Source: a virus
Virus record (IMG/VR): IMGVR_UViG_3300035670_000058
Span: 32,001-96,000 of that record
Length of the DNA stretch: 64,000 bases
Reading direction: 5' to 3' (one strand)
Shown here piece by piece: positions 32,555 to 55,599 of the stretch. Below the pieces are notes generated by a model. It saw only the letters and a program-made list of their open reading frames with translations. It ran no database searches and had not been told where the DNA came from. The first letter of the stretch is position 1. Every line of letters starts with the position of its first letter. The position numbers and the translations under genes were made by a program.

Positions 32555-32599
32555 AAAAAAGGGGACGTACATGAAATGCGTGGATGCATGTACGTCCCC
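32555..32599 (-). terminator. Intrinsic terminator
   Basis: 13-bp stem GGGGACGTACATG/CATGTACGTCCCC plus T6 on the minus strand. Confidence 0.85.
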
Positions 32600-32650
32600 T
32601 CAAGTATCTGAAACAATCGAACATAGCAGAGAGATTGATTAGCCATTTTC

Positions 32651-33247
32651 CTAAGCGGAGGCGACAACCTCTTCCTGCTCAGTATTCGAATACTGGGCAG
32701 AAAGGGCACGCTCGACAGCCTCCTTGAGTCGAGCCAGTTCAGACGCATTGACACCCACCAGAGCCGAAGCATCCAGTTCAGAAAGATTGTCCACGCGGAA
32801 AATCTTCTTGCGGGGGCCACGCTTCTTAGCGAGATTGTTATTCGACTTGAAATTCTGGACTGCATCCCGAACGTACTTAGGAGCGCGGGACGAACCCTCT
32901 TCCACAGAACCTCGGAAATACTGAACCATAAACTGAGTCATCTCTTTCGCATCAGCGAAAGGCTCAGGCTCTTCACCCTGCACCCAAAGGTACGTAGGGA
33001 TCAGATCAAGCCGACGATTGCGATGCGAGATATCCTGAACGATTTGCTCAGCATCATACTTCGCATCGACCGTGAAATCATTGACGATCACTCCATCAGT
33101 CGTGATCTCAAAGTTAGCACGGCCACCAAAGAGATGATAGATACCCTGCCATGCAGCGAGGACAGCGTTTCCTGCGCCATTCTCAACGCCGACAGTAATG
33201 GGCTGAGTGCGAGTCTCAGCCTCAGGGGTTGCGTTAGCCTTAGCCAT
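32651..33247 (-). CDS. Hypothetical, probably abundant protein; monocistronic and enclosed by a long UTR stem
   Basis: 198 aa; tandem promoters, boxA-like element, flanking inverted arms 33276-33309 / 32612-32644. Confidence 0.8.
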   Translation of the reverse strand: MAKANATPEAETRTQPITVGVENGAGNAVLAAWQGIYHLFGGRANFEITTDGVIVNDFTVDAKYDAEQIVQDISHRNRRLDLIPTYLWVQGEEPEPFADAKEMTQFMVQYFRGSVEEGSSRAPKYVRDAVQNFKSNNNLAKKRGPRKKIFRVDNLSELDASALVGVNASELARLKEAVERALSAQYSNTEQEEVVASA

Positions 33248-33323
33248 TGTATTTCGATCCTTTCGATTGGTGTAAGGCTAACCAATCTCTCCATCTATAT
33301 TCGGTTGTTAAGGTGCTGGGAGC

Positions 33324-33458
33324 ATTATCCATGCTTCCCTGAGTCTTGTCAAGACCCTGCCGGTTGTCTAGCGATTTTCCGGCCCGTCTATTCTGGACTC
33401 CCGACCGCCGTTCCCGACCGCCTGTGAGCATCCTAGCGCTTCCCCGTCCCCTTGTCAA
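33324..33458 (-). promoter_or_regulatory. Tandem sigma70-type promoters (P1/P2-like)
   Basis: TTGACA-17-TAGGAT (33458-33430) and TTGACA-17-GATAAT (33352-33324). Confidence 0.8.
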
Positions 33459-43900: not shown

Positions 43901-46354
43901 ATAATAAGTGGCGAGATCATCTTGCTACATTTGGTGTAGGAGTGCCCGCAGCAGAAATCTGGGCTAATACTGATAAGTATCAGGACGGGCCATTCTTTGA
44001 GTTGATCAACTTCGCTGATAACGAGGGATCAATTGGTCCCGATGCAGCGCGTGATCTTGATATTGATTTTGCTGTCAATAGGGATGACGTTGAGCAGAAG
44101 GCTCGCGCTCATTTCACAGATGACGGTGATTTTGATTGGTTCATGCAGAAGTATGATGACTGGGCAGAGGCATTCAAGATTGCTCGCAATCAGGGACTGG
44201 TGTATTTCTGCTAATGACTACTATCAAAGTTGCACCTATGAGGATGCAAACTCATCTCAAAGAGGTGGGTAGAACCATCAATGATAATGGTAACAAGATT
44301 ACCTTTGATTTTAGTGATACGTCAGCAGTGAGAATTACTACTGTATCAGAGGATGGACATTCCTGTCAGATAGTCCTTACGAGCAGGGAATGGTTTCTTG
44401 TCAATGAGTTGAAGGACACGATCTACAGACTGAAAACAACTACAGTCTGACTTGAACCTACTATTCACAGAATGGTATACTTGATTCCGCACAGTCGGGA
44501 GACTTGATGATGGATAATTTGAAACTCTACCTAGTTGAGTATGAACCGTTTGTATTCATAGTTGCATACGAAACCTATTGGGCAGAGGATATTACTCATG
44601 CTAGAGAGCAATTTGCTAATGCCCATCCAGATGGGGTAAATGATGTGATCAGTATCTTTGAGTGTACGAAAGTTTGGGGCGAGGAAGATGACAACGCATC
44701 TTAGCGATTTCGATAAGTCTCATATTGGTGAGATTATTCATTATGACAATAGAGCCTATGAGTGGACCAGCGCACATATCATCAGATTTATTGATCGTAT
44801 GATCAGCAAGGGTGCATCTGATTATGAGATGGGTACACTCTATGCTCTGTGGCCCGAGTATTTTGATGCTGTACTTGATTGGTATGGCTGGCCTAAGAGC
44901 GAGCAGAAGATGATGATTGCTCGTTGGATTAGTGCGGTGGGATAAAAATGAACGTAACGCAGTTTGATCAGATTCCAGAAGCAGAAAAGGAATTGATTGC
45001 TTTCATCAGAAAGGTGTTGAATCTCTCTGATGATGTACGAATTACTGTTGAGTCATGGTCTGATCAGTTTGGTGGCTATAGGATTTCTGAGATTGATGTC
45101 TTTACACCTGATCCAGAAAGAGGACTTCCATTTGGATCAGGTGGAACCTATATGCAATCAGATTATGACGCTGGTGCTGTACTCTTTGCAGCAGAGCGAT
45201 TTGTAATCAGTCGTAATGACCCTATTGAAGAATGGGGACTAGATAGTTATATTGATTATCGTCAGGAAAGGGAACAGGCTTTAGCAGAAGCATTGGGGGC
45301 AGAAATTCCTGAGTGGGAAGATAGGAGATAACTAATGAAGCCTCTATATAAGACAACTATTATTATCTGGAGTCCCTTTGATGGAGAGGAAGCAGAACTT
45401 ACTGATCTAGCATTTCAAGCAACAGAAGGTAATAGTTATTGCTCTTCTCAGAAATCTATTCTGGTAGATGATCCAAGGGATGATCCAGATTGGGATGGTA
45501 CATCATTCTTTGATGATCCATACTGAGGATATAAATGGATACTCAAGATAAGTTCATGAAGACACTTGAAAAGGAACTTCCAGATCACTTGGAAATGGTT
45601 GTGAATAAGAGTTACCATAATGATGGAGTTATTTTTATCCAACCAGTTGAGTCCTTTGAATGTGTGCTTATGATTAGATTCAATTTCCAAACCAATTACT
45701 GCACATTTGAAATCTCTCCGGTAATCGCCGGCTCTTACCGTATTGAACAGAATTCAACTATGGTCTATGTACCTAGTCCATTTGAGAAACTTGGACAACT
45801 TATTGAAGATATCAAGAAGTATCTTCTCTCATAAGGGAACCCCTAATCATGAATGATGTGACGCTCACTATTACAATCGAGCGATTGCTTGATCCTGATG
45901 CTGCTGATAGATTTCTAGAGTTGGAGGCAGAGAAGCAAGGTATCATTGATTCAGATCGATCAGCATATGAGATTGAGCAGGATATTGATGGGCTGCTCAG
46001 CGATTATCTTGATACTTCTGACTTCCATGATATTGTCAAATACGAACTCGATGCCGAATATTCGGGGGAATAAGGAATCTATTTATGTCGTATAAAGGTA
46101 TCGAGATTGAAGTGACGCCCGATGATATCGCTAAAGCACTTGATCCATCCCGCACATTTGATCCAGTGACTTATGCGATCATCAGGACATACCCATATGT
46201 ACCTGTCATTGATGTAGGCTCAGAGTATGTGGTAATCGGCAATGCAAAGTATTATACCAACGATGTGCTTTATGAGCATCTACTTGAGTGGGATAAGTAC
46301 AAGGTATTCCACCCACATACATACAGACTAAAAAGGGCGCAAGATAATATGTAA
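40923..46354 (+). CDS. Run of about 18 small hypothetical proteins, including two related MGLD-start proteins (43196-43672 with YWRKANQIH; 43684-44214)
   Basis: Contiguous coupled ORFs in the track. Confidence 0.6.
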
Positions 46355-46621
46355 TATATACTATCTAGGTATATATACCATGTTGTCTAGATGGAGTGAA
46401 TCCCCAGATATCGGGGCCATTCTTATTGCGTGTCTAGTTGTGATCGGATTGATCCTCTTGATCCAAAGTGGGGGCAAGAATGACAGATTATAGTTAAATA
46501 TATACAAAATATATAGGAGATACCACAGATGTGATCTTGATAAGCTATTGCCAGGTATAAAAGAGGCGCAGGCTTACACTGTAAACCATATAAATATATA
46601 ACAGAATAAGCACGAACGTTT

Positions 46622-46662
46622 GCCCTTATCTCGTATAATTACGGGATAAGGGCTTTTATTTT
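46622..46662 (+). terminator. Intrinsic terminator closing the rightward operon
   Basis: GCCCTTATCTCGTA..TACGGGATAAGGGC plus TTTTATTTT. Confidence 0.85.
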
Positions 46663-47094
46663 GAATTACGCCGGCACCTCTGTTACATGGAGAGTTTTTT
46701 AATTATATTTATATCAGTATATATACGTAATTGACACCTTTTATTCCTAGGCAATTGCGCAGCCAATGGAGCGCAGCGTATTTTAGAGGCGTATTGCCTT
46801 GGAATAATATATCCTTTTTTATATGGATTTAGCCAATAGACTACGAACACAGAGTAAGTCAGTATTATTTAGCCAATGGAGCGCGCCGCCTAATAGGTAC
46901 GTATTATCCTGGAGAATATAGAATGAAATTGAATTAGAATTAAGCTCCGGTTACTGTTACGATATATACAATATATTTATATCTATTTGCCAGCTCTTGC
47001 AGCTTATCCCTTTACCACCTGGCCTTGCCTAGCTGATTGCGCATGCAATTGTCTGTCCCTATAAAATTCATTTGTTGCGATTTGCAAATAATGC

Positions 47095-47123
47095 TTGACA
47101 AGCGCCGCGCGGTGTGCGACAAT
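47095..47123 (+). promoter_or_regulatory. Sigma70-type promoter of cassette A
   Basis: TTGACA-17-GACAAT with TG extension. Confidence 0.75.
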
Positions 47124-47239
47124 CCTCTTGTACCCGAAAGGGAGCACCTTTACAAGAGAATAGAGAGGGCAAGGCGAAAGGTAGCCTAATTCTCCGTCCT
47201 GACTAACTAGCATTTATGCTAGAGAAAGGAGGTGAAAAT

Positions 47240-47536
47240 ATGGCAACGTATCATATCGCCAAGATGCGTGTCGTGCGGCCATCCGAAAAGATGGCGGCAA
47301 AGCATCCCGACCGTTTCGCAACGGTTTTCGGTATCTTTGCTAATGAGCAGGGGCAGCGGCTTAGCATTACGTCTAAGGTAATTACCATTGACGAGGCTAA
47401 GGATAGCGATACTACGATTGACATCGTGAATGGTATTCTTACTCTTCCCGATGGAAAGCGTGGTCGCACCGCTTCCGAATCCATTTCGCAGGACGATATC
47501 GAAGCGGAACTCGCAGCGCTTCGCGGAGAGAATTAG
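47240..47536 (+). CDS. Cassette A protein (98 aa), paralog of cassette B
   Basis: SD AAAGGAGGTG; MRVVRP...PDR..TV.G.F...LSI..K.....AK......V.NG.LTLP.GKRGR....AELAALRGE shared with B. Confidence 0.85.
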   Translation: MATYHIAKMRVVRPSEKMAAKHPDRFATVFGIFANEQGQRLSITSKVITIDEAKDSDTTIDIVNGILTLPDGKRGRTASESISQDDIEAELAALRGEN

Positions 47537-47999
47537 TTACTAATTAGCCAAAACCCTCTCTATTCTCAGAAAGGATAAACTAATACTGAATTAGTATTAT
47601 AAAACGAATTGAATTTCGATGCCGGCCAGGTTCTTGAGCCAATGGAGCGTAGCGTATATCAGGTACGCCATATATATTTGAATTTGAATTATGTTCTTGT
47701 TCTTGTTATATATCCTGGATTATATTTGAATTTAAATTCTGTTCCTGTTTTATATTTTAGCCAATAGATTTCCATTCTCATCTGGGGGGGGGTGAGCCAA
47801 TAGAGGGGGGGGGATGAATGCCGGCCAAGCTCACCGACAATGTGAGAATAGAGCCTGTGGGCGACCAATACATTGGTCAGTATTGTCCACCTAGAAACAC
47901 TTGACAGGGTATGCGCCTTGTGGCAGTATATGGGTGTCAGAGATGACAGGGACCCGAGAGGGACCCGAGAACCTTAACAAGTGAATAGCAGGGGATAGG

Positions 48000-48401
48000 G
48001 TGACAAGGCCCGACAAGGGCGAAAGGGAAACTCCCATTAGCGTCACCTACTTCGTGGATCGGATGCGCGTCATCCGGCCCACAGGGAAGACCAAGGATCG
48101 GAACCCTGATCGGGTCTTCACCGTCAACGGCGTCTTCTACTCCACCGAGAGGGATGCCAAGGGCAACATCATCGTCAAGGACAAGTTGTCCATCATCACC
48201 AAGAACGTGGACGTGGATGACGCCAAGTCCACCGAATTCGCCCTTGACGTGACGAACGGCTACCTGACGCTCCCTGAGGGGAAGCGTGGCCGGGTCGCAC
48301 AGGCGGGGCTGGCAGAGGCGGATATCCTCGCGGAATTGGCCGCGCTGCGTGGCGAGGACACCGACGACACCGAAACCGAAACCGAAACGGAAACCGACTA
48401 G
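48000..48401 (+). CDS. Cassette B protein, paralog of A (true start uncertain, possibly ATT 48036)
   Basis: Clear similarity to 47240..47536; promoter TTGACA 47901; acidic TE-repeat tail. Confidence 0.8.
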   Translation: MTRPDKGERETPISVTYFVDRMRVIRPTGKTKDRNPDRVFTVNGVFYSTERDAKGNIIVKDKLSIITKNVDVDDAKSTEFALDVTNGYLTLPEGKRGRVAQAGLAEADILAELAALRGEDTDDTETETETETD

Positions 48402-48801
48402 GTATTAATTCACCCATCCCCTGCTATTCCTACCAATTTAATGAGAATGCCGGCGAGCTGCATATATATACAAATTAAGAATTGAATAAGAAATCTTAAC
48501 CTGTTTACTAAATAAGCCAATAGACTCCCGGCTCAATTGGAGGGGGGAAGCCAATGGAGGGGGGTGGCATAAAGGGACGCCCATACCTGGGATATATGCG
48601 CATATTCGAATTGAATTCGAATTGCCGTTCTGTTCCTGTTTTAGTGAATTGAATTAGCGCACCTGTTCGGTTACGTGCAACGCGCACAGGGATACCTGGC
48701 CGAGCCGGCCAGTAGCTGCGCGTGCAACTACCCTGGATTCGACGCGCACGGCAAAGCCCTACCCGAAGGGGTAGGGCTTGCCTGTTGGGAAGGACTAGGG
48801 A

Positions 48802-49083
48802 CTAGTCGATCATCTCCTCGTAGGGCTTGTCGAAGAAGCCACCGGGGACCGACTCGTTGAGCCTGTCCCACAGGTTCCGCGCTTCCGCGTTCATGTCGCG
48901 GTCACGCATTTCCTGATGGATGAGGTAGAGGCCAAAGGTGACCTCATCGACGGTCGGGACGCCAAGGTCCACGCCCACCGATTCCTGAAGGAGAGCCAAG
49001 GGGAACATGGTGTCGGTACCCTCGTAACCGAAATCCACCAGTGCCCCGTAATCGAGTCCCTTCAGGTACTCAATCGGGTCCAT
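48802..49083 (-). CDS. Cassette C protein (93 aa, acidic), family with E and H
   Basis: SD GGAAGGA before ATG 49083; hairpin at ~48750-48782. Confidence 0.75.
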   Translation of the reverse strand: MDPIEYLKGLDYGALVDFGYEGTDTMFPLALLQESVGVDLGVPTVDEVTFGLYLIHQEMRDRDMNAEARNLWDRLNESVPGGFFDKPYEEMID

Positions 49084-49663
49084 TATTCGGTTATCCTTCC
49101 CTGTTGCCTTGGGTTCTTCCCTTCCCCTTGGGGTCGGTCCCTGCTGTTTCCGACATCCATAGATTAGCACGACCACCATAGGGATGAAGAGCTCAATGTC
49201 ACAAGAATTCGTGACCAATGGCACTATGCAAGCGCCGGCAATTGTGCTACAATCCTCTGGGACAGCCCAGGGTGCGAAGCCAATAGAATGCGTCAGCAGA
49301 CTGGGGCGTGAGCCAATGGAGCGCAGCGTGTATGTTGGGCGCATGGAATATACAGTAGATGAGTATTAGAATTGAACTGCGGTTCTGTTCCTGTACTGTA
49401 GAGGATTAGCCGTTCTGTTCTGTTAGGTATATGGTGTATAGCAAGGTGCCGGCTTCGCGCCATTTCACGCTATCCTGGATGAATCTATACTGATTCGCTA
49501 TGATATAGGCTCGATTTGTCCTGGTCTATTGAGCTATCCAAGCCGGCTCAAATCGCCCAATAATCGATTATTCTGGGCGCAAGAAACCCCTTGACAACAT
49601 TCACCAGGTGCGCTAATCTACTGGTAGATCAAGAAACGCTCCTACAGGGAAGGGACACCAGAA

Positions 49664-49909
49664 ATGTTGGACGCAGCGACACTCATCGAGGACGGGTACG
49701 ACCCGGACATGGCGGCGAAAGAATTGATGGAGGATGCACAATTCATCATCAGCGATCTGGCCGAGGATCTTCGCAGCCAGGATCGCAGACTACAGGATGC
49801 ATTCTCTGGGCAGGAAATCCCCGAAATCGTCTGGGACGCGATCTGCGCCATCAAGGCGACGGTCAAACATCTCGATAGCGCGGAGGATGCACTGGTCCGA
49901 TATATGTGA
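49664..49909 (+). CDS. Cassette D protein (81 aa, acidic helical)
   Basis: TTGACA-17-TAATCT (49591-49619); hairpin 49921-49957. Confidence 0.75.
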   Translation: MLDAATLIEDGYDPDMAAKELMEDAQFIISDLAEDLRSQDRRLQDAFSGQEIPEIVWDAICAIKATVKHLDSAEDALVRYM

Positions 49910-50306
49910 ATAACCGAATATATTAGTGCGGGGGTAATACATACTCCCGCACTAATACATAGCCCTGGAGTAATATATAAGTCCTGGGGTACTAGAATAG
50001 AATATAAATAAATCTTAACAATAAGAAATCTTAACCTGTTTAGTAAATTAGCCAATGGAACGCATGCATAAAAATGCACGCCGAGCCAATGGAGCGTATA
50101 TATAATATTGGGCGGGTGTGTGTTTGAATACGAATTGAACATCCGTTCTGTTCCTGTTTGAATAGCACCTCGATTCCTGTTATGCGCATAAGCGCATAGC
50201 ACGCGCATAGCGTGCGCCTAGGCGTGAGCTTGCCGGCCCTATGGGCCAGGCACTTGAGCATGGTGATAGGGGAGAGGCTTTCGCGCTCTCCCCTATCTGC
50301 TAGAGT

Positions 50307-50612
50307 CTAGTAGTTGACGGGCTTGGTGGACCGGACGAACGAGGCGTACTCGCTGTAGGTCTGGTCCTCAAGGATCGTGCCGTTCGGAGAAGCGGCGTTG
50401 ATCCGGTTGAAGAGATCGACTGCATCCCCGTCCAGATCGCGCCACACCAGATGGGCGTGGATCATCTGGGAGAGAAGAGTGTCGGTGGAGATGGTGTAAG
50501 GATCGCCGCTCTTGACTGCCTCCGCGTAGAGGCTGGCCTCCTCCTGTGCAATCGCCACCAGAACGTGATCCGGCACGATGCTCAGGTAGACCATCATCTC
50601 TTCAGGCCCCAT
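50307..50612 (-). CDS. Cassette E protein (101 aa)
   Basis: SD AAAGGA; hairpin ~50264-50297; similarity to C and H. Confidence 0.75.
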   Translation of the reverse strand: MGPEEMMVYLSIVPDHVLVAIAQEEASLYAEAVKSGDPYTISTDTLLSQMIHAHLVWRDLDGDAVDLFNRINAASPNGTILEDQTYSEYASFVRSTKPVNY

Positions 50613-51050
50613 CTATTCAGTTATCCTTTCCTACTGCTGGCCCCTCTGGCCCTGTCAGATCGTGTATCGATCTGATAGGTGTATCTTCGTCTATAGCGCT
50701 ATCATGATATAGGTCCATATGGGGTAGATATTTGTGACCAATGGCACTTGACACACAGGGGATGATGTGCTAGCCGGCAAATAGAACAGGCGTTCTAAAG
50801 CTGTGCGAGCCAATAGATTCAACATCCATTGAATGGCGCATGAGCCAATGGAGCGTGCCGCGTGTATGGGGCGCAGGAATATATACCAACTATGTATTAG
50901 AATCGAATATCGGTTCTGTTCCTGTCATAATGAATTAGCCTGATGTGTTGTTCTGTTATATCTCCTGAGGCCGGCTGTGCGCCTCTCCTGTGAGTCGCCT
51001 GGCCCTAGGGCAAAGAGAAAGGACCGGGTGTCCAGCCCGGTCCTTAGTCT

Positions 51051-51299
51051 CTAGCGGAAGTCGATATCCAGAATGGTCAGGCTTCCGTCGCTGATTTCCT
51101 TCTGTAGAGCATCGACTTCGATTTCGATGCGAGCGATCTTGGTATGGAGAGTATCGAGGATTTCCGCGAGAGCGATCTGCTCCTCGTTATCATCGGTGAT
51201 TTCGGTGATCTGATCAGCGATCTGGTTGACCCACCAATTCGCGTCACCAATCTGCCCGATGACCTTCTCCAGCCCTTCGATCAGAAGGTCTGTATTCAC
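51051..51299 (-). CDS. Cassette F protein (82 aa, acidic coiled coil)
   Basis: SD GAAGGAAGGA before GTG 51299; hairpin ~51019-51045. Confidence 0.7.
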   Translation of the reverse strand: MNTDLLIEGLEKVIGQIGDANWWVNQIADQITEITDDNEEQIALAEILDTLHTKIARIEIEVDALQKEISDGSLTILDIDFR

Positions 51300-51840
51300 T
51301 TGGGTCCTTCCTTCGCTACTGGCCTGGCCTGTCCTTATTGGGGACAAGCCCATTGTGCGCCTATTCCGCTGATATGTCAATACCCTTTATGCAGTTGGTC
51401 ACTATTGTCCACCTATTCTGTGAGCAGTACAAAGGTCCCAAAAGATGTGACATTTGGCCCTTGACAGGAGCCGGCAGATATGCTAGCTCTACTTGCATAC
51501 TTGCGCAAGCAGCTAAGTGACAAAAGTCACAAAAAAATGTGACAAATGGCACTTGACAAAGCCAATAGACTCCAGGCTCTATCCTGGGCGCAAGCCAATG
51601 GACCTAGCCTTATATCTTGGACGCATGTATGAATATACTGATATACGCATATATGGATGAATTGAATTACGAATTCGGTTCTGTACATGTTCTGTTATAT
51701 GGCCTGGCCTGTTAGGCTGTTCTGTTATAGAGATATAGCGCGATGAATTCCTGGCCGGCTGGTGAGCTTTCCCACGCGCATGGGCCAGGCGATGGGCAAA
51801 GAGACAGGGCCGGGATCGCTCCCGGCCCTGTCGCCTCACC

Positions 51841-52146
51841 CTAGGCTGTAGGGTGGGCCGCTTCGAACGGCATTCCCCGTCCGATCCCCGTCCGATGGGC
51901 GTTAGCCGCATCGTAGAGGCGCTTAGCGATGCCACGGTGACGACGCCAGATCGCTTCGTCCACCAGCCGATCCACCAGCGCGGCAATCGTGCGAGGATCG
52001 ATTTCCTCGCCCGTCACCAGCACCAGCGTGAGGCTACCGGACTCTTCGATCTGCTCCGCGAGGCTGCGAGCCATAGCGAAGATCGCGCCCGACGACTGCT
52101 CCCGCAGATCGAGTGCGATGGGATCGAACATTTGGCCTAGCACCAT
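51841..52146 (-). CDS. Cassette G protein (~100 aa)
   Basis: SD AGGAAAGGA; hairpin 51803-51832 directly after the stop. Confidence 0.65.
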   Translation of the reverse strand: MVLGQMFDPIALDLREQSSGAIFAMARSLAEQIEESGSLTLVLVTGEEIDPRTIAALVDRLVDEAIWRRHRGIAKRLYDAANAHRTGIGRGMPFEAAHPTA

Positions 52147-52664
52147 CCTTTCCTATATCACCTTGGAACAAGGTGATTGTACGCCTCGCGGCTAATAGAT
52201 ACCTAGGGCCAAAAGTCCCGAAAAAAAGTGACAAATGGCCCTTGACAAGCTATGCCGGCATATGTTAGGGGCCAGGTTAAGAAATCTTAGCTTGTTTAGT
52301 AAACTAAGCCAATGGAGCGTGTACTATAAATGGTACGCCCGTTCTATTTCCAGGGCTTGAGCCAATGGACCTAGCCTTATTAGGGGGGCGCAGGAATATA
52401 TCACTGATTGAATTAGAATTGAATTACGGTTCTGTTAGGATTACATACCAATCCAAGTTCTGTTATGCGCATGTATGTATCCTGGGCACATATATCGCCG
52501 GCTGATATATTCCTGGCCTAGCAGTAGCTTGTTGCCGGCGCAACAGCTCATGCGGCATGAAGTATATATTGGTCACTATTGTCCACCCGAATTCTCTTGA
52601 CACAGCCAGGTGCATCCGGTACGCTTAGCCTGCGTCCAGCGGCAAAGATAGTACGGGAGATGAC

Positions 52665-53018
52665 ATGGACCAGAACGGCGGCACTCAGGACTTCCTGAGC
52701 GAGATCGCGCACGCGACATGGATCGCGTGCAACCCTCAGACCACATCCCCTGCCGACGTCGAGGAATTGGGTATCCTCGCAATCCGCGATCTCAACGCAG
52801 CCATCGAGAATGGCGACTACATGATGGCGACCGTAGCCAACGCAATCGTGTCCACCGTCCATCGCGCAATGGTCTGCCGGGGAATGTTCCTCGACGCGAC
52901 CGATCTCTTCTGCCGGGTCAACGCTACTGCCAAGAGCATCGGCATCGATGACATGCTCGACGGGCAGACCTACACCGAATACGTCGAGGCGATCCTCGAC
53001 TGGTACGCTCAGGCGTAG
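52665..53018 (+). CDS. Cassette H protein (117 aa)
   Basis: TTGACA-17-TACGCT (52597-52625); SD GGGAG; hairpin ~53032-53058; similarity to E. Confidence 0.78.
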   Translation: MDQNGGTQDFLSEIAHATWIACNPQTTSPADVEELGILAIRDLNAAIENGDYMMATVANAIVSTVHRAMVCRGMFLDATDLFCRVNATAKSIGIDDMLDGQTYTEYVEAILDWYAQA

Positions 53019-53457
53019 CGATCCACTAGGGTAGGGAGGCTAGCAATAGCCTCCCTATTCCTGTTGCCCTGGCCAGGGGCGCATATATATGCATGCATAC
53101 TCATACAATGGGTATGCAATATTGCGTATAGACGCAATAGAACATCCGTTCTGTTTCGTTCTGAGCCAATGGAGCGTGCGCTGTTATAGGTGCGCCCATG
53201 TTCTGCGCATAGTGTACCGTTCTGTGTTCTGTTATATAGGGCCGGCTATACGATAGGTCCTGGGGTAAGCTTTACCTTGAGCTATATGGCCGGCTCTATA
53301 TCTAATACCTGGGTATACCTTACATCTAGGTATAAGGTACACCTTATAACTTCAGGCCATCTTGGTGACATTTGGCCCATTGACAGTGACCAATGGCATA
53401 TAGTAGAGTACGGGCATGGTCATCTACTTCCACTCCACTAGCACAGGGGGCCACGCT

Positions 53458-53993
53458 ATGGCACCGGATAGGCGCGATGCGCGCGTTGCAGCGCGGATCG
53501 CACAGGCGCAGGATCGCGCTGCGCGCGATGCTCGCAACACTGCGCGCGACAATGGCAAGTCAGAGTCAGATACGGCATACGATTACAGGATGGGAGCGGC
53601 ACAGTGAAGCGCAATCAGGCGCATCCCTGCTACGTCAACGGCAACACCCCTACGGGCATGGCGCATATGCCCATTGGCCGCTACGTGGAGTCAGTCCGCT
53701 ACGGCGCATCCCTCACAATCGGCAACATCGTCCGTCGCAACGCTCTCCGCTACATGCTGGACGATGCCGCACAGGTCGCCGACACCGATACCACAATGGC
53801 GCTGCTAGATACAATCGAACACTACACTCCCAGTGTGCCGCGCTGCATGGGCACCGACACCGACTGCAACCACACACAGTCGGTGCACGACTGGGATGGA
53901 TGCTTGCACGATACGTGCGAGTGCACCCTGCGATACGGTCGCGGTGTCAATCGACTCAATGAGATGATCATGGCAGAGGGATACATGATCTGA
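53458..53993 (+). CDS. Cassette I: two coupled small proteins (53458-53607; 53604-53993 with Cys/His cluster)
   Basis: TTGACA 53380; GTGA overlap; C.H....H....C.H..CEC; hairpin ~54014-54044. Confidence 0.6.
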
Positions 53994-54331
53994 CTTTCAC
54001 AACTCAAATTCACAATTAGGGCCGGTTATACGCCGGCCCTAATTCATATTACCCAGGTTGCGTGATTGCGCAAGTACGCAAGACCCCCCCCTATATTCGC
54101 ATCGAATTAGTGCACATTCAACGCCGTCGAGCTCTGTTACTGTACATAAATCCGAGGTCAACTTTTTGAAACTTTTTAGAATACGTCTGCCTTCATTCTG
54201 AAGGTACTATACAAAAATACGAGGTCAATTTTTTCCAGTTTTTTAGAAGACCTCTAGAGTAAAAAAATGGGAGCAAAAATTTCACAGTTTTTTAGATAAC
54301 TCTCGTCATAGTATACGGTAAAATTGGGCAT

Positions 54332-54916
54332 AAAAAAGTAAAGCCCCCAAGGAGCAAACGACTTCGGGGGGAAAGTCATTCGATCAACTTGGAGGCTTTA
54401 CTTTGATCTGAACAACAGCCGAAATTAATTTTCAGATCAAAGCAAGGATCAGCGCCGCATACGTGGCGGCATCTATTCAGTTAGGTTCTGCGCCCTATCA
54501 GTACATTTGGGCGCAGAGTCTGGTTGCTTTACAACAAAGGATTTTTTGCTGTATTACTACGTGAATTTGAGTGTTCCTTGGCAACCTTTCTGTCAATGGA
54601 GAGTCTAGACTTCCTGACAGTGCCGCTGGGGTCGCTTTCACGTATACTGACCAGAACTATCCAACAACCACATTGGGGTACAATATAGTTGTTATATAGC
54701 CGAAGGTTTTGATTGACCTATCAGATGCATTCAGTCAATCAATCAGATGCATGATACGCAGATAAGGGGCCGTGAGACACCCTCTGTGTATGATGCAGAG
54801 AACGAGATTTCCAAATCATTCTCTTACGTCTGTCTGATATCAGCAGAGAGTTTGCCAGAAGGAGTCCTGATCTTTTGAGGGACCAGAGGTTTCTGGTTGT
54901 CTCCCCCGCTGCTGAT
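54332..54916 (-). ncRNA. Candidate large structured non-coding RNA (~585 nt); strand tentative
   Basis: No credible ORF; at least 8 consecutive or nested stems; minus-strand TTGACG-17-TACAGT promoter (54951-54923) and terminator-like stem plus T6 at 54404-54332. Confidence 0.6.
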
Positions 54917-55599
54917 GTATGTACTGTACCGTGCCCCAGACGACCCGTCAAGTTGCGGTTCGGTTACAACTCGGGGGCAAAGGCTCTATTTTTGGGAGCC
55001 GAGGGATAAAAACTCACCTTGACAACCAATTGCCAATCGGCTATGCTAGTAGGTACAGAGAGGGGAGTATTTTATCGCCTGAAATCTGGTCGATTTTTTC
55101 GACAGTTAATGTGGCTTGTCCGCAGTAGAATTGCGGTAGTAACCATTTCGGCGTCCTTTGTTCGAACAGTTGTTCTTGAATTCCTTTCAGGGAGGAATTG
55201 TTTCGTTGGACCCAGATTATGAAGCCTACCGATTGTGCGGCAAGTGTGGGAATATGAAACCTCAGACAGAGGAATATTTCTACATCATGCGCCCAAGAGG
55301 GCCGCACAAGAGCATCGGTTGGCAATCGTATTGCCGCGAGTGCTGGAAAGACATCAATGCGGCGAATAAACTTCGCAGGAAGTTGGCGTGCAAGTGACCT
55401 ACATCAACACTGATTGCTGGTGCTATGGTGTCGGTTGCGAGTGGTGTTTCTGTGGATGGGATGAGCAATGACGTTTGTGAAGTGTTCTGTTCCTGTTGGC
55501 GCTAGGCCGGTGTTCCATTTCTGCAATCGCAGGAATGAACTCGCCTCTTGTCTGCACTGCAAGAAGGTTTTCTGCAAGCAGCACATGAGCAGACATCGC

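Follow-up and report, generated by a model that had tools for sequence, protein, structure and literature searches.

The 64,000-nucleotide (nt) stretch analysed here, which we call the window, comprises bases 32001-96000 of the complete IMG/VR virus record IMGVR_UViG_3300035670_000058, a phage genome of 114,680 base pairs (bp) with direct terminal repeats; coordinates are window positions unless marked as genome. Three of its protein-coding genes, designated A, B and C, specify messages whose ends mimic, in both sequence and structure, the ends of the precursor ribosomal RNA (pre-rRNA) of the Chloroflexota. The mimicry is evident because the identity of a ribosomal RNA (rrn) operon element is joined to a long-range helix around each gene and to arms that co-vary in two unrelated gene families and in other phages. 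As these messages copy Chloroflexota pre-rRNA, this is probably the phylum of the phage's host, and we propose, with a probability of roughly 0.6, that the phage puts the host machinery for transcribing and processing rRNA to use on protein-coding messages. The features of the three genes, with the long-range helix referred to as the stalk, are as follows.

47095-47123, + strand: gene A promoter, TTGACA-17-GACAAT, with TG before the -10
47133-47142, + strand: gene A 5'-terminal hairpin, CCC-GAAA-GGG
47144-47155, + strand: gene A boxA, GCACCTTTACAA
47147-47194, + strand: gene A stalk, 5' strand, which contains the exact 14-mer 47156-47169 along with a GAATAG foot that is conserved
47207-47222, + strand: gene A local covarying hairpin, then the Shine-Dalgarno sequence GAAAGGAGGTGA at 47224-47235
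47240-47536, + strand: open reading frame (ORF) A, 98 amino acids (aa), of no known family
47528-47574, + strand: gene A stalk, 3' strand, with the exact 14-mer 47554-47567 and an AAAGG that pairs with the CCTTT of boxA
47901-47929, + strand: gene B promoter, TTGACA-17-CAGTAT with TG, read by eye and below the scan threshold
47935-47966, + strand: gene B 5' hairpins, TGTCA-GAGA-TGACA and GGGACCC-GAGA-GGGACCC, with CCC-GAGA-GGG at 47953-47962
47971-47988, + strand: gene B boxA and helix foot, ACCTTAACAAGTGAATAG, which departs from the Chloroflexota rrn 18-mer at 1 position
47980-48003, + strand: gene B stalk, 5' strand, overlapping a possible GTG start at 48000
48036-48401, + strand: ORF B, paralog of A, of uncertain start, either ATT 48036 (family alignment) or GTG 48000 (133 aa)
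48410-48431, + strand: gene B stalk, 3' strand, 9 nt past the stop
33324-33458, - strand: gene C tandem promoters, TTGACA at 33458-33453, and TTGACA at 33352-33347 with GATAAT at 33329-33324
33297-33316, - strand: gene C boxA and helix foot, GCACCTTAACAACCGAATAT, 2 mismatches to the rrn 18-mer
33275-33312, - strand: gene C stalk, 5' strand
32651-33247, - strand: ORF C, 198 aa, 24 homologs
32612-32644, - strand: gene C stalk, 3' strand, whose UUGUU end pairs with the AACAA of boxA
32555-32601, - strand: canonical intrinsic terminator past the gene C stalk, a GC-rich hairpin and T6

The boxA of these leaders belongs to an element, GCACCTTAACAA-CTGAATAG, found 14-93 nt upstream of 16S and 23S rRNA in Chloroflexota. 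A scan of IMG/VR for ACCTTAACAASYGAATA returned 90 stretches whose flanks agree beyond the pattern, as (a)gc followed by ACCTTAACAACTGAATAG, and this exact 18-mer is present in at least 120 GTDB genomes; among the matches listed most are Chloroflexota (Dehalococcoidia, Anaerolineae, Chloroflexia and SAR202). BLAST places the 5' end of a 16S (64) or 23S (15) gene 14-93 nt downstream in 79 of 120 loci, with 14 more too short to tell, and Rfam searches put the 18-mer 31-76 nt upstream of 23S in loci L105, L107, L109 and L130 and of 16S in L134. A contig often has copies separated by ~2.1 kb, the distance that a leader copy and a spacer copy would have, and position and duplication of this kind define an rrn boxA (PMC10250234). 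When the phylum is sampled evenly and up to 2 mismatches are allowed, 84/151 genomes contain a match, compared with 7/151 for the reversed control, and the exact 18-mer is found in only 1/81 sampled Chloroflexota genomes; the element thus varies at one or two positions, and many of the assemblies probably lack rrn operons. Of the 11 positions of GYTCTTTAANA, the consensus for the gamma-proteobacteria (PMC5725501), the core GCACCUUAACA matches 9, and boxA is known to differ between phyla (PMC13753749).

Within the phage genome ACCTT[AT]ACAA occurs three times, always at a stalk foot, and the only sites with four or fewer mismatches to the host 18-mer are those of B (1), C (2) and A (3, at 47146-47163); shuffled genomes have 0-1 sites at three or fewer mismatches. 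The likeness extends past boxA, for in Chloroflexota the 5' strand of the rRNA leader-trailer helix is made up of the bases that follow, from CUGAAUAG on, and the trailer that they pair with ends in CUAUUCAG. The phage stalks and the host 23S and 16S helices have a GAAUAG/CUAUUC foot in common. A single 16S operon (L134) was examined, and there the trailer also pairs with boxA; partial pairing of this kind is seen in the phage, through AAAGG in A and UUGUU in C. The original prediction, made from the letters of A and B, had called attention to a boxA-like element in front of each gene (CACCTTTACAA at 47145-47155 and AACCTTAACAA at 47970-47980) and proposed that it be compared with the boxA of the host clade; the comparison gives the Chloroflexota element that precedes both 16S and 23S, with the helix strand next in line. 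From the predicted promoters boxA would lie ~15-45 nt (A, B) or 5-10 nt (C) past the transcript start.

The stalk itself emerges from unconstrained RNAfold minimum free energy (MFE) folds of whole transcripts. Transcript A forms 36 long-range pairs (47147-47194 with 47528-47574; z -8.0), B forms 23 (47980-48003 with 48410-48431; z -5.5) and C forms 41 (z -4.8), and no shuffled sequence folds as well as whole transcript A or B. Long-distance pairing around the ORFs of A and B had been noticed before, between GAGAATAGAGAGGG at 47156-47169 and its exact reverse complement at 47554-47567, and between 47983-48003 and 48410-48429 with one bulged A; every position that had been stated for the two genes proved correct on reading, and the folds of the full transcripts bear the structure out. 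The stalk of A is longer than had been described, with a second segment in which GGUAGCCUAAUUCUC pairs with GAGAAUUAGUUACU, and the stop codon (47534-47536) consequently lies within it. An absence of local 3' hairpins from A and B had also been remarked on, and here a correction is needed, as A does have a weak AT-rich one at ~47581-47600, although it is without a U-tract.

Exact inverted repeats of at least 14 nt with arms 150-1500 nt apart number five in the 114,680-bp genome and two of these are A and B; at 12 nt or more there are 16, compared with 5-12 in block-shuffled genomes. Two more of the exact 14-nt repeats are spaced by 400-640 nt, at window 5314-5327/5709-5722, where the pair lies inside a 350-aa ORF, and at genome 19149-19162/19791-19804. 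A genome-wide scan of duplex energies for further stalks was as noisy as the shuffles (579 raw hits vs ~400).

Comparison among homologs shows that pairing is kept while sequence changes. The A family was compared at eight loci of the 21 homologs (L010 is identical to L009), and in whole-transcript MFE folds L003, L004, L005, L006 and L009 form 25-39 long-range pairs each; among C-family homologs the four in other phages of 105-120 kb (L011-L014) form 21-37 with diverged arms, giving a range of 21-41 over 12 transcripts. Stalks in both families show that the design is used by two unrelated gene families. The A-family arms differ in sequence, and duplex energies are -33 to -57 kcal/mol for a 5' arm with the 3' arm of the same transcript and mostly -10 to -29 kcal/mol for arms taken from different homologs, the stronger cross-pairs being the A 5' arm with the L009 3' arm (-37) and close C-family pairs (up to -42 kcal/mol). 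In a table of 27 leader-trailer pairs (22 phage, 5 host) anchored on the foot, there is no variation at the six foot positions; beyond GAAUAG, 78-100% are paired at offsets 6-17 (85-100% at offsets 7-16), and each position at offsets 6-17 is occupied by 3-6 pair types, as raw counts that ignore phylogeny. The stalk is missed by RNAalifold when whole A-family transcripts are aligned with MAFFT, since an aligner that uses sequence only misaligns the variable arms, and the covariation is accordingly drawn from per-sequence folds, cross-duplex matrices and the anchored pair table. Complementary arms of differing sequence in homologs were what the original prediction called for, and L003-L006 and L009 have them, L008 being the exception without a stalk.

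Two local structures accompany the stalk in the A family: a 5'-terminal hairpin kept across all leaders and, likewise, a covarying hairpin just before the Shine-Dalgarno sequence. The first had been described as a GNRA hairpin in the position of an rrn boxB. The hairpin is kept, and its loop is not: GNRA loops are seen only in A and B, and the other A-family hairpins have purine-rich loops of 7-10 nt. Of the proposed resemblance to an rrn operon, the boxA and the covarying stalk hold up and the boxB does not. In the five A-family leaders without boxA (L003, L004, L005, L006, L009) the loop of the 5'-terminal hairpin contains a Shine-Dalgarno-like AAGGAGG or AAAGGAA. These loops are reminiscent of STAB-SD of Bacillus cryIIIA mRNA, which is a 5' stabiliser.

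Gene C provides the same design around an unrelated gene, hhalign finding no relation between protein C and the A family (probability 0.1%), and it is located outside the array of ~760-bp cassettes in which A and B reside. In the C-family leaders of five phages CTTAACAA..GAA.A is invariant while protein identity falls to 48%. A terminator past the stalk is present in three of the four homologs L011-L014 as well, and separate terminators after C-family stalks indicate that the stalk is not a terminator. The same conclusion is reached for A and B, and we reject the stalk as a long-range intrinsic terminator, as neither 3' arm is followed by a U-tract and C has a terminator of its own.

The cargo in each case is a protein. 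Proteins A and B are paralogs (44% aa identity), and protein A has 21 metagenomic homologs and a confident AlphaFold2 model (predicted local distance difference test score, pLDDT, 83). Foldseek gave no match for this fold in the PDB at E <=0.001, and a wide VIA-align search gave nothing usable (best Z 3.6, weak small-barrel rows only). DNA and protein searches of the phage GenBank collection with gene A found no match, Pfam and PHROGs yielded nothing meaningful for A, B, C and the neighbouring cassettes, and a scan of GTDB genomes for A-family proteins found none. The loci mimic rrn operons without being such, since the cargo is a conserved protein-coding ORF with no Rfam match. In keeping with a Chloroflexota host, the 16S 3' end of L134, ...CACCUCCUUUCU, agrees with the long Shine-Dalgarno sequence AGAAAGGAGGUGA. 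Gene B has an odd start: the codon is ATT (48036), behind a good Shine-Dalgarno sequence, and every homolog has ATG at this distance from its Shine-Dalgarno sequence. The sole canonical in-frame upstream start of B is GTG 48000, within the 5' arm, and translation of the gene may be weak or under the control of the stalk.

The same arrangement recurs around small ORFs in about 15 other phage loci of IMG/VR. Among the IMG/VR motif loci a downstream complement of the arm (within 1.5 kb) at -30 kcal/mol or better is found in 16 of 65 evaluable loci, compared with 5/57 in the upstream control. In eleven of these the arms flank ORFs of 62-450 aa (L018, L024, L025, L035, L055, L066, L072, L074, L081, L086 and L089), and in most of them the 3' arm starts 7-19 nt past the stop codon, which is overlapped in L066 and L074; the next gene often begins directly after the 3' arm. 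The Shine-Dalgarno sequence is within ~20 nt after boxA in L025, L035 and L074. In L086 (1-400) a second boxA-like sequence, agcACCTTAACAACTGATAG, lies directly past the 3' arm, giving tandem units as with A then B.

In the reading that we propose, transcription would initiate at host-type sigma-70 promoters. The leader presents, in order, a 5' hairpin (A, B), the rrn boxA GCACCUU[A/U]ACAA and, directly after it, the 5' strand of the helix starting GAAUAG; the 3' strand is located 8-20 nt beyond the stop codon, which in A is itself covered by the inner helix, and it is able to pair with part of boxA as well. By analogy with rrn, boxA would load NusB-S10 together with NusG, NusA and SuhB onto RNA polymerase, and the complex would make transcription fast and resistant to termination while keeping the leader strand at the RNA exit until the ORF is made and the trailer can pair. 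Host RNase III would then be expected to cut the 25-40 bp helix, as it does for pre-16S and pre-23S, freeing a discrete message from any read-through transcript; this message would keep both of its ends in a duplex stub, protected against decay that depends on a free 5' or 3' end. The steps follow the rrn model, with its boxB, boxA, boxC, 25-40 bp leader-trailer helix and NusB tethering (PMC10250234). NusB and RNase III are encoded in 5/5 motif-bearing Chloroflexota genomes, and no NusB, RNase III or double-stranded RNA-binding domain was found in the phage genome.

Several observations weigh against this proposal. In L008 the long-range helix is absent and the transcript ends in a local hairpin, the foot of which is again GAAUAGGG...CCCUAUUC, and five A-family leaders that do have the stalk (L003-L006, L009) lack boxA, so that the helix is independent of boxA and of Nus loading. 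One of the three mismatches of gene A to the host 18-mer falls inside boxA; the variant concerned, ACCTTTACAACTGAATAG, is present in one sampled Chloroflexota genome. After the gene C stalk a separate terminator makes 3' protection by the stalk look redundant there. There is little strand asymmetry, with 15 A-family G-U pairs on the coding strand and 9 on the other, and the coding strand is the better fold in 9/12 cases. A boxA near a start codon can repress, as at suhB of Escherichia coli (PMC5725501), and the host phylum is itself taken from the motif only.

The leaders without boxA also speak for an alternative in which the helix acts by itself, as an end-protecting or insulating structure that makes the message a non-covalently closed one, resistant to exonucleases and folding independently of its read-through context, with boxA a functionless leftover of a captured host rrn leader and no involvement of Nus factors or RNase III. 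Besides the five homologs with a stalk and no boxA, the unusual compactness of the whole messages agrees with this, as does the C-family transcript start, only ~5-10 nt ahead of the helix foot, a position in which the 5' end would be buried. A leftover would not, however, be expected to remain unchanged in five C-family phages that have diverged and whose neighbouring arms vary, nor to account for all three genomic near-matches at stalk feet or for a module that recurs in many unrelated viral contigs, and a local hairpin would be a cheaper means of protecting an end. We regard this explanation as unlikely.

Rather less likely is that boxA is a negative element or sensor, as in E. coli suhB, where Nus factors close to the ribosome-binding site would hinder translation and expose the message to Rho; expression would then track the free Nus-factor pool, and the trailer would end the effect by drawing boxA into the helix. 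The positions of boxA, 40-95 nt from the start codons, and of the nearby Shine-Dalgarno sequences in L025, L035 and L074 are compatible with such a role, as are trailers complementary to boxA itself, and boxA-mediated repression with autoregulation is documented (PMC5725501). Consensus promoters and very strong Shine-Dalgarno sequences suggest maximal rather than throttled expression, however, and the layout copies that of rrn, where boxA acts positively.

It seems very improbable that the transcripts are decoys, abundant imitations of pre-rRNA that would bind up Nus factors, RNase III or ribosome-assembly factors of the host and thereby lower its ribosome synthesis during takeover, with the ORFs of secondary importance. 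Strong promoters, in tandem for C, and the close copying of both boxA and the helix foot would suit a decoy, but conservation of the ORFs is at the protein level and goes with strong signals for translation and a confidently predicted fold, a genome has no more than three copies, and the free variation of the arms would be needless in a decoy for sequence-specific factors. That the arms are DNA-level inverted repeats for inversion, exchange or mobility of cassettes, with no RNA structure, is scarcely credible and was rejected: A and B do lie in an array of ~760-bp period with both orientations represented, and the G-U asymmetry is weak, but the arms are inside the transcription unit, downstream of the promoter, and match the host rRNA leader-trailer helix, the coding strand folds better in most cases, gene C has the same design outside the array, and arm sequences that differ in every homolog offer no common recombinase site.

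Genes A and B stand at the start of a region of higher G+C content (~46.7-54 kb), in a genome that encodes a DnaB-like helicase, primase, DNA polymerase, ribonucleotide reductase, clamp loader and tRNAs. The polymerase is less than 31% identical to that of any cultured phage, so that there are no close relatives and no host can be assigned by that route. The array (46700-54100; G+C 50-56% vs ~44% elsewhere) has a period of ~760 bp, in which conserved spacers that contain paired AGCCAAT[A/G]GA boxes, GAATTGAATT and GTTCTGTTCCTGTT alternate with small genes that stand singly, point either way and have one TTGACA promoter each. An Rfam search of 46000-55500 matched no family. A palindrome, GGTTAAG-N3-CCTTAAC (or TCTTAAC), is found in array spacers (48485-48503, 50020-50038, 52273-52295) and directly upstream of the -35 of A-family promoters (L003:2834-2852, L004:1442-1460, L005 ~675-690). 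It includes a boxA-like half-site and looks like a DNA operator, or like a hairpin able to mask boxA. Occurrences of CTTAAC in array spacers, and in L003-L005 upstream of the -35, are part of this palindrome and were therefore set aside as transcribed boxA. A further motif, GTGAC[A/C]AATGGC[A/C]C, adjoins the TTGACA of several cassette promoters (49210-49231, 50732-50754, 51446-51467, 51538-51559, 52227-52248), and a near-palindromic copy of it constitutes the 3' hairpin of the A homolog in L008 (~850-895), making it a candidate regulator site.

The rrn 18-mer is also found in bacterial loci of other kinds. In two Dehalococcoidia chromosomes (L145:1092-1160 and L180:4324-4400) it lies directly upstream of ORFs that are Cas1- or Cas4-like by their N-terminal sequence only, which suggests boxA-dependent transcription of clustered regularly interspaced short palindromic repeat (CRISPR)-cas loci in Chloroflexota and agrees with the use of boxA outside rRNA (PMC5725501), including the CRISPR operons for which PMC13753749 cites other work. 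Peptoniphilaceae and Peptococcus (Bacillota; L136, L141, L160, L169, L183, L185) have the exact 18-mer in a conserved context, ttgaACCTTAACAACTGAATAGaccaagacaag; the 8-kb locus scanned in L136 contains no rRNA gene, and a pemK RNA lies ~180 nt downstream. In three contigs of Chloroflexota metagenome-assembled genomes (L129, L139, L152) and in the viral L045 a conserved leader of caatcgttccttttgttggatgat...aaagc and the 18-mer precedes a protein of 150-180 aa that starts MLDW(N/D/G)KY, possibly encoded by a prophage or a mobile element.

BoxA and leader-trailer helices are viewed as parts of the ribosome-making apparatus, and the textbook example of boxA taken over by a phage is the lambda nut site. 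In the messages described here ordinary protein genes are surrounded by copies of both rrn devices at once, in two unrelated families and many uncultured phages. No description was found, in a literature of which our coverage is incomplete, of a protein-coding message within an rrn-type leader-trailer helix headed by a host boxA, nor, within the same limits, anything on boxA in Chloroflexota phages. If the proposed borrowing is true it represents a new way to make and protect a bacterial message, and a natural test bed for the rrn antitermination complex as an RNA chaperone, with a cargo far simpler than rRNA. A phylum-specific rrn boxA in a phage also points to its host phylum, a sequence-based predictor that would be useful for phages of uncultured Chloroflexota, and a promoter, boxA and matched arms could form a portable expression part for poorly tractable bacteria. 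A broader and more tentative idea, which we consider possible if doubtful, is that dressing messages as pre-rRNA is a general phage strategy that arose in several host phyla, the rrn antitermination complex acting as a co-transcriptional chaperone that closes the message into a non-covalent circle, which would pass as a 'self rRNA precursor' and evade mRNA decay, Rho surveillance or RNA-targeting defences during infection.

The components are already known singly: boxA in a phage (lambda nut), boxA at non-rRNA genes, pairing of the 5' with the 3' untranslated region (UTR; icaR, hok), and the action of RNase III on phage transcripts (T7). In phage T7 host RNase III cuts discrete, 3'-hairpin-stabilised messages from the early transcript, but its sites are local intergenic hairpins, with neither a gene-spanning helix nor boxA. 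The hok mRNA of hok/sok toxin-antitoxin loci is likewise closed by 5'-3' pairing, its 5' end binding the 3' fbi to give a closed, compact and stable full-length message; unlike the phage messages, it is inert until 3' trimming and has an antisense RNA partner, and neither such a partner nor a toxin is seen here. Closer in some respects is Staphylococcus aureus icaR (PMC3868564), in which the 3' UTR pairs with the 5' UTR of the message to make an RNase III substrate, but that pairing hides the Shine-Dalgarno sequence and represses, and there is no boxA. Repression of the icaR type was rejected for A and C, the Shine-Dalgarno sequences of which are outside the stalk; in gene B it is GTG 48000 that falls within the stalk arm. 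A host boxA precedes protein-coding or CRISPR transcripts elsewhere, in the leaders of suhB and a toxin-antitoxin gene (PMC5725501) and in those of CRISPR operons (as cited in PMC13753749), but no enclosing helix is present in those, and suhB regulation is repressive.

Lambdoid nut sites (boxA and boxB, with N protein and Nus factors) resemble the phage leaders in that a phage transcript carries a host boxA to modify RNA polymerase. They have no leader-trailer helix, whereas here one encloses the gene, and the order here is hairpin then boxA, that of rrn, with a hairpin loop that is not conserved; a nut site or boxB of the lambda type was rejected because the hairpin precedes boxA and the loops vary (GAAA, GAGA, 7-10 nt purine-rich). 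No N-like protein was identified, no search having been aimed at one. The nearest relative is the bacterial rrn leader and spacer, which runs in the same order of promoter, hairpin, boxA, helix 5' strand, cargo and 3' strand, with a helix of 25-40 bp, and in Bacillus subtilis rrn too a 5' hairpin is followed by boxA (PMC13753749). The phage helix begins 0-2 nt past boxA, unlike the 18-19 nt between boxA and boxC in Enterobacteriaceae, and the cargo is a gene for a protein of 100-200 aa with its own Shine-Dalgarno sequence rather than rRNA; in boxA and helix foot the phage leaders are within 1-3 of 18 bases of the Chloroflexota element, and their arms co-vary.

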